Virus record (IMG/VR): IMGVR_UViG_2703718809_000008
Source: a virus
Lineage: Duplodnaviria > Heunggongvirae > Uroviricota > Caudoviricetes
Direction: 5' to 3' (one strand)
Length of the DNA: 4,254 nucleotides
Positions 1 to 1,301 of this stretch are shown piece by piece. Under the pieces are notes generated by a model. The model was not told the DNA's origin and ran no database searches. It saw only the letters and a list, made by a program, of their open reading frames with translations. The stretch's first letter is position 1, and each line of letters begins with the position of its first letter. The position numbers and the translations under genes are program-made.

Positions 1-1
1 G

Positions 2-91
2 GTGGCCAAATTTACTGTGCCACTACACCATGCCTACGGGATGTTTATGGAACGCTTCAACGAGTTATCGGAATTACGCAAATGTGCATAA
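2..91 (+). CDS. 3' end of an upstream prophage gene (partial, start outside window); hypothetical protein
   Basis: Frame 2 is open from the window edge to TAA at 89-91 (translation ...VAKFTVPLHHAYGMFMERFNELSELRKCA*). The stop overlaps the ATG at 82 of the next gene (ATGTGCATAA), a typical coupled-operon arrangement. Frame 1 is also open back to position 1, so the assignment is uncertain. Confidence 0.35.
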   Translation: MAKFTVPLHHAYGMFMERFNELSELRKCA

Positions 92-960
92 CTCATGTAG
101 TTAGTTTTTCTGGCGGGAGAACATCCGCATATCTTGTTCACCTGATGGAAGAACAAAGAAAGGCTGGCAATAACGTCTGCTACATCTTTATGGATACCGG
201 TTGCGAACATCCGCTGACATACCGCTTTATCCGGGAGGTTGTGAAGTTCTGGGACATACCACTAACTGTGTTACAGGTCGATATAAATCCTGAGCTTGGG
301 CAGCCAAATGGTTATACAGAATGGGAGCCAACGGATATTCAGACACGAATGCCGGTGCTTAAACCGTTTATGGACATGGTTAAAAAGTACGGCACGCCAT
401 ACATCGGCGGCGCGTTCTGTACTGACAGGCTAAAACTCATCCCTTTCACGAAATACTGCGATAACCATTTCGGGCGAGGTAATTACATCACATGGCTGGG
501 TATTCGTGCAGACGAACCCCGTAGGCTGAAACCGAAATCGGGCGTCCGGTATCTTGCCGAGCTGTCAGATTTTGATAAGTCGGATGTTATCCGGTGGTGG
601 CGAAAACAACCTTTTGATTTGCAAATCCCGGAGCATCTCGGGAACTGTGTTTTCTGCATCAAAAAGTCAACGCAAAAGCTGGGGCTTGCATGTAAAGACG
701 AACCAGGTCTGATGCGAGTTTTTAATGAGCTGGTTACAGGCAAACACGTCAGGGATGGTCATCGCAGAACAGGTAAAGACATTATGTACCGTGGTCACCT
801 GACGCTTGACGGAATTGCCAGAATGTCTGCCAACAGCGACTACAGAAATTTGTATCAGGCGATGGTACAGGCCAGGCGATTCGATACCGGCTCGTGTTCA
901 GAGTCATGTGAAATCTGGGGTGATCAATTGGAATTGGAATTCGAAGAGGTAGGGGTATGA
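82..960 (+). CDS. Phosphoadenosine-phosphosulfate (PAPS) reductase-like PP-loop ATP pyrophosphatase superfamily protein, 292 aa, unknown function
   Basis: Long ORF with N-terminal PP-loop motif SFSGGRTS (aa 8-15), followed by FMDTGCEHPLTYRF (matches the SGGKDS ... DTG-x-FPET pattern of the PAPS reductase family) and LGIRADEPRR. Cysteine motifs CVFC and CSESC lie in the C-terminal half. Start at 82 is supported by overlap with the upstream stop; an upstream start outside the window cannot be excluded because frame 1 is open to position 1. Family assignment is by motif recognition only. Confidence 0.7.
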   Translation: MCITHVVSFSGGRTSAYLVHLMEEQRKAGNNVCYIFMDTGCEHPLTYRFIREVVKFWDIPLTVLQVDINPELGQPNGYTEWEPTDIQTRMPVLKPFMDMVKKYGTPYIGGAFCTDRLKLIPFTKYCDNHFGRGNYITWLGIRADEPRRLKPKSGVRYLAELSDFDKSDVIRWWRKQPFDLQIPEHLGNCVFCIKKSTQKLGLACKDEPGLMRVFNELVTGKHVRDGHRRTGKDIMYRGHLTLDGIARMSANSDYRNLYQAMVQARRFDTGSCSESCEIWGDQLELEFEEVGV

Positions 961-1301
961 CAACCGAAATTAACTACCATGCACTGCTTGAGCGCGCACG
1001 GAATAAAGTGCAGAGCATTGAGTTCGCCTTAACACAGAGTGCATTCGCTGAGATTCGCGCTGAGCTTGAAAATGATTTAGAACTGGCACGGATTGCACTG
1101 GCATCTCTGGAAGTTGAGCCAGATGAACGCGCAGCCTATGAATTATTTATGGAAAAGCGTTTCGGTAAAACAGTCGATCGTCGGAGAGCAAAAAACGGCG
1201 ATAACGAATACATGGCATGGGATATGACTCTCGGTTGGATCATCTGGCAGCAACGAGCTGGTATCCATTTTTCAACAATGTCACAACAAGAGGTGAAATA
1301 A
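957..1301 (+). CDS. Hypothetical small acidic protein (114 aa), translationally coupled to the PAPS-reductase-like gene
   Basis: ATG at 957 overlaps TGA of the upstream gene (ATGA at 957-960). AAGAGG Shine-Dalgarno at 944-949. Ends in tandem stops TAA-TAG (1299-1304). Sequence is Glu/Ala/Arg-rich and predicted helical; I recognise no family. Confidence 0.6.
   Translation: MTTEINYHALLERARNKVQSIEFALTQSAFAEIRAELENDLELARIALASLEVEPDERAAYELFMEKRFGKTVDRRRAKNGDNEYMAWDMTLGWIIWQQRAGIHFSTMSQQEVK

Follow-up and report, generated by a model that had tools for sequence, protein, structure and literature searches.

Organization of the Locus

The stretch of DNA analyzed here (4,254 nucleotides of the IMG/VR virus record IMGVR_UViG_2703718809_000008, Caudoviricetes), referred to as the window over its whole length, begins with a segment (positions 1–1301) in which three genes follow each other on the plus strand: the 3′ remnant of yfdR (28–91), a ninC-like gene encoding 292 amino acids (82–960) and a YfdT-like mosaic gene encoding 114 amino acids (957–1301). 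In our reading, this segment forms the distal part of the early-left (exo-xis) operon in a lambdoid prophage of mosaic structure, where an early-left (yfd) block of the CPS-53/SfV type is joined to the xis, int and att of phage lambda. The three genes would be independently mobile modules rather than parts of a dedicated three-protein machine, and the product of the central gene, NinC, is a putative PP-loop enzyme that may counteract restriction by acting on phage DNA. We give this explanation as a whole, mosaic and counter-restriction together, a probability of about one half; that the individual genes of the segment have been identified correctly is close to certain.

The two complete open reading frames (82–960 and 957–1301) that an earlier note on this DNA had singled out are both present on the plus strand, and they are real genes, as the conserved homologs of each number in the hundreds to thousands. 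Their assignment to the int/xis-proximal slot of a lambda-like prophage also agrees with our analysis, which places the PP-loop gene in the early-left region beside xis and int. The description as an uncharacterized, different cassette does not hold: the segment is composed of a member of the lambda NinC family, a YfdT variant and a yfdR remnant, all of which carry RefSeq annotations. The locus is already known and constitutes a further recombinant arrangement of catalogued lambdoid modules.

BLAST comparisons with lambda, SfV, CPS-53 and an Stx phage delimited the mosaic blocks. A fragment of an insertion sequence (IS) element at positions 1–27 is followed by yfdR (28–89), ninC of the Stx-phage type (80–969), a private N-terminal segment of the 114-residue gene (970–1091), yfdT with its downstream sequence of the CPS-53/SfV type (1092–1371, 92–93% nucleotide identity) and the lambda xis-int-att block (1368–2770, 97.8% identity). 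Judged from these alignments, the segment is put together from four sources. In SfV and CPS-53 the same slot is occupied by yfdR-yfdS-yfdT-xis, which indicates that ninC has replaced yfdS here. The window has in common with the CPS-53/SfV cluster the slot upstream of xis, the 3′ end of yfdR with its 10-nt overlap and the C-terminal two thirds of YfdT, which are 84% identical. It differs by the presence of ninC in place of yfdS (DUF551), by the Ea22-like and private N-terminus of the YfdT-like protein and by the splitting of yfdR by an IS element. The two-gene unit 82–1301 is found in 180 of 5,426 complete E. coli genomes (~3%) when coverage of at least 80% of these positions is demanded.

The upstream end of the segment had been read before as one gene tail spanning positions 2–91. 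This reading stands for positions 28–91, the last 21 codons and the stop codon of yfdR, a gene for an HD-domain 5′-deoxynucleotidase. Positions 1–27 (no strand assigned) do not belong to the phage operon but to the end of an IS fragment disrupting yfdR, since other E. coli genomes align with the window only from base 28 and an IS cluster adjoins it in strain M7424. This strain matches the window at 100% and carries directly upstream a ~3.6-kb cluster of IS3/IS30 transposase fragments that splits the HD-hydrolase gene. Homology identifies the tail as the 3′ end of a yfdR of the type found in CPS-53/SfV prophages: the 3′ 62 nt of the remnant share 93.5% nucleotide identity with SfV orf30 and 91.8% with K-12 yfdR, the remnant peptide matches PHROG dNMP-phosphatase families, and in strain EC6868 yfdR is intact, annotated and overlaps the following gene by the same 10 nt. 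In M7424, the IS3/IS30 composite within yfdR (locus L001, 8421–11991) stands between the pL promoter and the genes that follow, namely ninC, the yfdT-like gene, xis and int. The IS fragment of positions 1–27 occurs also on plasmids of the same strains.

Identity and Predicted Enzyme Type of NinC

The 292-residue protein shares 79% identity with NinC of phage lambda over 285 of its 292 residues and matches phrog_424 with an E-value of 9.5e-91. At the nucleotide level its gene is 89% identical to genes that Stx phages such as VT2phi_272 carry in their early-left region under the annotation 'NinC'. The features of the NinC family (PHROG 424 / 33262), namely full-length homology, invariant motifs and a lambdoid early-operon context, are all found here. 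By its sequence, the protein is the ortholog of lambda NinC, and its gene appears to have moved from the nin region to the exo-xis region. Placement in the exo-xis region is as in many Stx phages, and a sister NinC clade is placed in the nin region. Lambda NinC itself (Orf290, PHROG 424) is of similar length (290 amino acids), has the same PP-loop and the same six cysteines, and is likewise encoded by a non-essential early gene with 4-nt overlaps, in that case with its neighbors ninB and ninD. The lambda copy is situated between these two genes in the pR nin region, whereas the window copy belongs to the pL/exo-xis operon beside xis. The literature on ninC and ninB that we retrieved consists of mentions in essentiality and interaction-map studies, with no functional study among them.

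An exhaustive profile search yielded 353 NinC clusters at 50% identity (E ≤ 1e-30). The motifs SxSGGRxS and DTGxEH and the cysteines C113, C126, C189, C192, C272 and C276 are invariant in 35 homologs, down to an identity of 51%. The AlphaFold2 (AF2) model of the protein (pLDDT 86) adopts a PP-loop fold. Many NinC representatives of 330–370 amino acids (P0244, P0249, P0252, P0254, P0257 and others) align with the profile in two parts, interrupted near position 150, which points to a clade in which ~50–60 amino acids are inserted in the middle of the enzyme.

The view that the protein is a PAPS-reductase-like PP-loop protein is borne out by a match to PF01507, as had been expected (35.2 bits against a gathering threshold of 22.5), which is limited to residues 5–71, and by a canonical PP-loop. 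NinC is accordingly modeled here as a PP-loop enzyme of the ATP-pyrophosphatase type that would adenylate its substrate. The cysteines conserved throughout the family, which probably form a metal or Fe-S site plus a mobile C-terminal cysteine pair, would serve sulfur chemistry. By analogy with DndC and APS reductase, we infer that NinC may be an adenylating enzyme that combines such a metal or Fe-S site with a mobile cysteine pair.

Possible Link to DNA Modification and Counter-Defense

Among the defense models, NinC is closest to SspD. The window protein matches the PADLOC model of SspD with an E-value of 1.2e-14 over model positions 2–125 of 277. Across the aligned NinC family SspD is matched by 35 of 35 proteins (best E-value 4e-20), BrxP by 32 of 35 and DndC by 9 of 35. 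For the window protein the scores of the latter two are low: 12.6 bits for the DndC equivalog TIGR03183, with a cut-off of 290.4 bits, and 17.2 bits for BrxP over 52 residues of a 779-position model. NinC has the canonical PP-loop N-terminal domain in common with SspD, DndC and BrxP, and its conserved cysteines recall the Fe-S cluster and cysteine dyad described for DndC (PMC10853773).

Some of the longest homologs are fusions. NinC is fused to a Dam domain (PF05869), which is located N-terminally in P0241 and P0243 and C-terminally in P0242, P0247 and P0273, while P0250 combines NinC with a D12-class N6-adenine DNA methyltransferase (PF02086) that is unrelated to Dam. These repeated, independent fusions to methyltransferases tie NinC to DNA-directed functions of the anti-restriction type. 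NinC would parallel the orphan adenine methyltransferases of phages, to which it is sometimes fused.

Protein p0018 of Vibrio phage 44E38.1 provides a genetic connection. It is a NinC-Dam fusion with 55% identity to the window protein over 283 amino acids, and its gene lies beside that of a NinG homolog within an early region resembling that of lambdoid phages. Transfer of p0018 together with p0019 into a related phage resulted in plating on a Dnd+ Vibrio host (Piel et al., bioRxiv 10.1101/2021.05.05.442762), a result for which a later paper credits a phage PAPS reductase that promotes escape from Dnd (PMC13551039). A literature search combining PAPS reductase and anti-defense gave nothing relevant. 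The NinC domain of p0018 is full-length and keeps all motifs, and the early region around it includes homologs of NinG, YfdP and DUF2303. In contrast to p0018 with its C-terminal Dam domain, NinC of the window is unfused, and no Dam is annotated in the ~10 kb upstream. In the same Vibrio phage, homologs of YfdP (PF27127) and DUF2303 (YfdQ) are found beside ERF/YqaJ recombination genes (locus L092, 1–687); the association of the yfdP-yfdQ pair with recombination modules is thus conserved well outside the prophages of E. coli.

For the E. coli phages, we infer DNA as the substrate, sulfur chemistry and a role against phosphorothioate-dependent restriction. With phage DNA as its target, NinC would counteract restriction, most likely by systems of the Dnd or Ssp type. 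The functional mechanism taken on its own, an adenylating, cysteine-rich and DNA-directed counter-restriction protein, is put forward tentatively, with a likelihood at or a little short of even. A more specific version, in which the NinC family installs or hijacks a mark on phage DNA, either a sulfur-dependent one of the phosphorothioate kind or another that requires adenylation, so that lambdoid phages escape Dnd/Ssp restriction, appears possible but rather doubtful. NinC would then be a stand-alone phage counterpart of SspD/DndC that operates without the cognate host partners.

A different substrate can also be envisaged. NinC might modify RNA, for example by thiolation of tRNA, and thereby tune translation or shield tRNAs from anticodon nucleases, with DNA not being a substrate. 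We regard this as unlikely because the methyltransferases to which NinC is repeatedly fused, from two unrelated families, methylate adenine in DNA. The best match among the defense models, SspD, is moreover a DNA phosphorothioation protein, the genetic link concerns an anti-Dnd activity, and the Pfam scan of the protein returned no RNA-binding domain of the THUMP or TilS C-terminal type.

The 114-Residue YfdT Variant

The protein encoded at 957–1301 consists of a few Ea22-like N-terminal residues, a segment private to it and the conserved core of YfdT with its tail. It is 84% identical to K-12 YfdT over residues 36–114 (81-residue alignment) and carries the YfdT core DERxxYELFMEKRFG...YMAWD...W..R, in which residues 56–100 are invariant. 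The N-terminus, MTTEINYHAL, resembles Ea22-type N-termini over the first 10–15 residues only. Its composition identifies the protein as a YfdT variant with an Ea22-like N-terminus. It had been described as acidic, which is true in a mild form (pI 5.23). Searches of Pfam, NCBIfam, PADLOC and the PDB gave no match, BLASTP against YfdS was negative, and the AF2 model is a low-confidence, all-helical rod (pLDDT 68). Membership in the Ead/Ea22 family (PF13935) was considered and rejected, as neither a Pfam domain match nor a significant BLASTP match to lambda Ea22 was obtained.

Within this protein a core of ~46 amino acids (residues 56–101, window positions 1122–1259) follows the pattern DERAAYELFMEKRFG..VDRRRAKNGDNEYMAWD..GW..W..RA and corresponds to no Pfam family. 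It is common to YfdT-like proteins and to the N-termini of DUF551 ('Eaa') proteins of ~190 amino acids, and seems to represent a portable module, so far undescribed, that is confined to prophages of Enterobacteriaceae.

In K-12, multicopy yfdQ and yfdR together with either yfdS or yfdT inhibit DnaA-dependent initiation at oriC, and YfdR binds DnaA (PMC4776307). Because the YfdT core is retained, membership in the yfdQ/yfdR host-takeover module is more likely for the 114-residue protein than a role as a subunit of NinC. With yfdR broken, this module is incomplete in the present prophage.

An alternative is that ninC has no role of its own here. It could be a passenger of recombination, with the activity of the segment residing in the control of host replication by yfdQ/yfdR/yfdT. 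In addition to the inhibition of initiation and the YfdT core just described, the position of ninC in the place of yfdS is in line with this idea. The strong conservation of NinC, with its 353 clusters and invariant catalytic-looking residues, argues for selection on a function of its own, and the yfd module to which the activity would be ascribed is itself incomplete here. We consider the passenger role improbable, to the same degree as a modification of RNA.

Gene Overlaps and Variable Partners

The start/stop overlaps that the earlier note had pointed out are real. ATG82 overlaps the upstream stop codon TAA89–91 over 10 nt (ATGTGCATAA, 82–91), and ATG957 overlaps TGA958–960 over 4 nt (ATGA). 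They had been taken to imply a complex of the encoded proteins, a deduction that finds no support, given the variety of genes found downstream of ninC. We examined 80 IMG/VR loci with a NinC at least 92% identical to that of the window, the search having given near-identical loci only. The gene 3′ of ninC has almost always the same −4 offset in these loci and comes from different families: a 67-residue protein in ~32, a YfdT-like protein of 114/115 residues in ~31 and Ea22-like proteins of 110–218 residues in the remainder. Near-identical ninC genes thus overlap at least three unrelated downstream genes, and the ATGA overlap is generic. An E. coli NinC clade of 54% identity, located in the canonical nin region, has 4-nt overlaps with NinB or HNH genes upstream and NinE genes downstream, and the lambda two-hybrid map contains no NinC interactions (PMC3224144). 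The gene of the 114-residue protein has a strong Shine-Dalgarno sequence of its own; that of ninC is weak only. The pattern of these junctions indicates that such overlaps belong to the usual tight arrangement of early genes in lambdoid phages, and a dedicated complex of NinC and the 114-residue protein is unsupported. The conserved 67-residue protein (MTIVKTHTG...), to which no family is assigned, is encoded by the commonest gene directly 3′ of this NinC clade in Stx-type phages (L006, 6878–7081; also, for example, L040 and L056).

A coupled complex of YfdR, NinC and the 114-residue protein, in which nucleotide hydrolysis and adenylation would be combined for nucleic-acid modification or defense, could draw on the reality of both overlaps, on the pairing of NinC with the 114-residue protein in ~31 of the 80 IMG/VR loci and in the 180 E. 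coli genomes, and on a possible dependence of ninC on upstream translation suggested by its weak Shine-Dalgarno sequence. Such a three-gene unit is nevertheless quite improbable. The equally tight coupling of nearly identical ninC genes to unrelated downstream genes, and of distant ones to NinB, HNH and NinE, shows no fixed partner. The stop/start overlap of yfdR is formed with yfdS as well in SfV and CPS-53, the mosaic breakpoints fall at or within gene boundaries, yfdR has been destroyed here by an IS element, and the gene of the 114-residue protein is equipped with its own ribosome binding signal.

Relation to Defense Systems and PAPS Reductases

SspD, DndC and BrxP are PP-loop proteins of DNA phosphorothioation systems. 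NinC aligns with them over its N-terminal half only, is phage-borne and stands alone. In matching genomes no sspA, sspB or sspC is annotated within 10 kb on either side. Neighbors of the Dnd type (dndA/B/D/E) are absent from the annotated neighborhood, which consists of yfdR, the yfdT-like gene and xis, and BREX genes are absent from the locus. Of the functions that had been considered for the cassette, nucleic-acid modification and anti-defense gain in plausibility by the likeness to SspD, the Dam and D12 fusions and the anti-Dnd homolog, and a defense module does not: no Dnd, Ssp, BREX or IbrAB partner is present, and the gene resides in lytic early operons. The analogy with IbrA/IbrB fails as well, since there is no ParB-like partner; the 114-residue protein has no Pfam match at E ≤ 0.1 and the upstream gene encodes an HD hydrolase.

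The idea that the cassette is a prophage-encoded anti-phage defense that guards the lysogen is suggested by its location in the accessory region beside int/xis, a frequent site of prophage morons and defense genes, and by the PADLOC matches to SspD, BrxP and DndC. These matches concern one component only, which is partially covered, and Ssp, Dnd or BREX partner genes are missing from the locus. The family occurs in lytic early operons (nin, exo-xis) that are repressed in lysogens, and the sole genetic result relates to counter-defense by a phage. We therefore consider a defense role highly improbable.

With CysH/APS reductase, NinC shares the Rossmann-like PP-loop fold and the DTG motif, and differs in its SGGxxS loop, in the C-terminal half and in the absence of the ECGLH motif. 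This C-terminal motif is the catalytic cysteine motif of CysH (EC 1.8.4.8); the translated NinC lacks it and terminates in GSCSESCEIWG. The SFSGGRTS sequence of NinC, a canonical ATP-pyrophosphatase PP-loop, aligns with the degenerate loop SSFGIQAA of CysH. The score for the CysH equivalog NF002537 is far below its cut-off (20.1 against 154 bits), sequence searches of the PDB gave alignments over the N-terminal 70–100 residues only, and Foldseek placed APS and PAPS reductases on top with TM-scores of 0.36–0.47. A role of NinC as a true PAPS/APS reductase, the product of an auxiliary metabolic gene that boosts sulfur assimilation during infection, can hence be given next to no credence, despite the database name ('PAPS reductase family'), the PF01507 score above threshold, the PHROG category 'auxiliary metabolic gene' and the Foldseek ranking, given that the homology ends after ~70–100 N-terminal residues, the structural matches reach such TM-scores only, the equivalog score is so low and SGGRTS stands in place of the SFGIQA of CysH, with no ECGLH.

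Flanking Features

Downstream of the segment, a consensus scan detected a terminator-like GC hairpin followed by a T-run (1368–1383, plus strand), which coincides exactly with the joint where the homology switches from CPS-53/SfV to lambda. Homology to lambda, as determined by BLAST against reference loci, spans from 1368 to 2770. It comprises xis, encoding a lambda-type excisionase of 72 amino acids (1416–1634, plus strand; PF07825, E-value 3.9e-41), and int, encoding a lambda-type integrase of 356 amino acids (1612–2682, plus strand) with PF00589 and the lambda arm-binding domain PF09003; the two genes have 97.8% nucleotide identity to lambda. The lambda att core GCTTTTTTATACTAA (2756–2770, minus strand) occurs in the window as one exact match, with none expected by chance, and marks the prophage/host junction (BOP′-type, attL) adjoining ybhC. 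This host gene (2817–4100, plus strand), recognized by the annotation of matching genomes and a pectinesterase Pfam match, flanks the lambda attachment site on the chromosome. Downstream of ybhC, the window ends in the start of an IS1397-like element of the IS3 family (4135–4254, plus strand), which matches annotated IS1397 transposase genes and begins directly after a REP-like sequence 3′ of ybhC. Matches of other genomes to the window stop at ~4134–4159, and the IS element varies in orientation among strains and is missing in some of them. Rfam and repeat scans of the window detected neither an RNA feature nor a repeat feature.

Discussion

In this study, we propose that the left end of the window is one of the many outcomes of module exchange in lambdoid prophages, and that its central gene encodes a NinC that may protect phage DNA from restriction. 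The sequence data themselves establish which genes are present, the mosaic layout, the conserved motifs, the methyltransferase fusions and the changing partners of NinC. The counter-restriction part of this proposal has to be weighed against several observations. Lambda ninC is dispensable in K-12, and no member of the NinC family has a demonstrated biochemical activity. The likeness to SspD and DndC is confined to the N-terminal PP-loop half, the C-terminal half has no characterized relative, and the assignment of an Fe-S site is based on the conserved cysteines only. In the vibriophage swap two genes were moved together, and the NinC domain involved is fused to Dam. Most E. coli strains have neither Dnd nor Ssp, so that a phosphorothioate-specific role does not obviously explain how common ninC is. 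In the prophage at hand, the IS insertion upstream may in addition block the normal expression of ninC from pL.

The locus itself is of little weight, and its residual interest lies in the biochemistry of NinC, which can now be tested. For the annotation of lambdoid phages, our analysis implies that the 'PAPS reductase' label, in wide use for such phage genes, and their frequent reading as auxiliary genes of sulfur metabolism are very probably wrong for the NinC family, and that a start/stop overlap in lambdoid early operons is no evidence for a protein complex. The methyltransferase fusions, the likeness to SspD, the six invariant cysteines and the one anti-Dnd result make the function of lambda NinC approachable by experiment, for which phage lambda is the best phage genetic system available. 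Should the NinC family indeed install or hijack a mark on phage DNA, this would hold for the 40-year-old orphan NinC of lambda as well, and the gene of the window would be an unfused E. coli representative of the family that is testable in lambda genetics.

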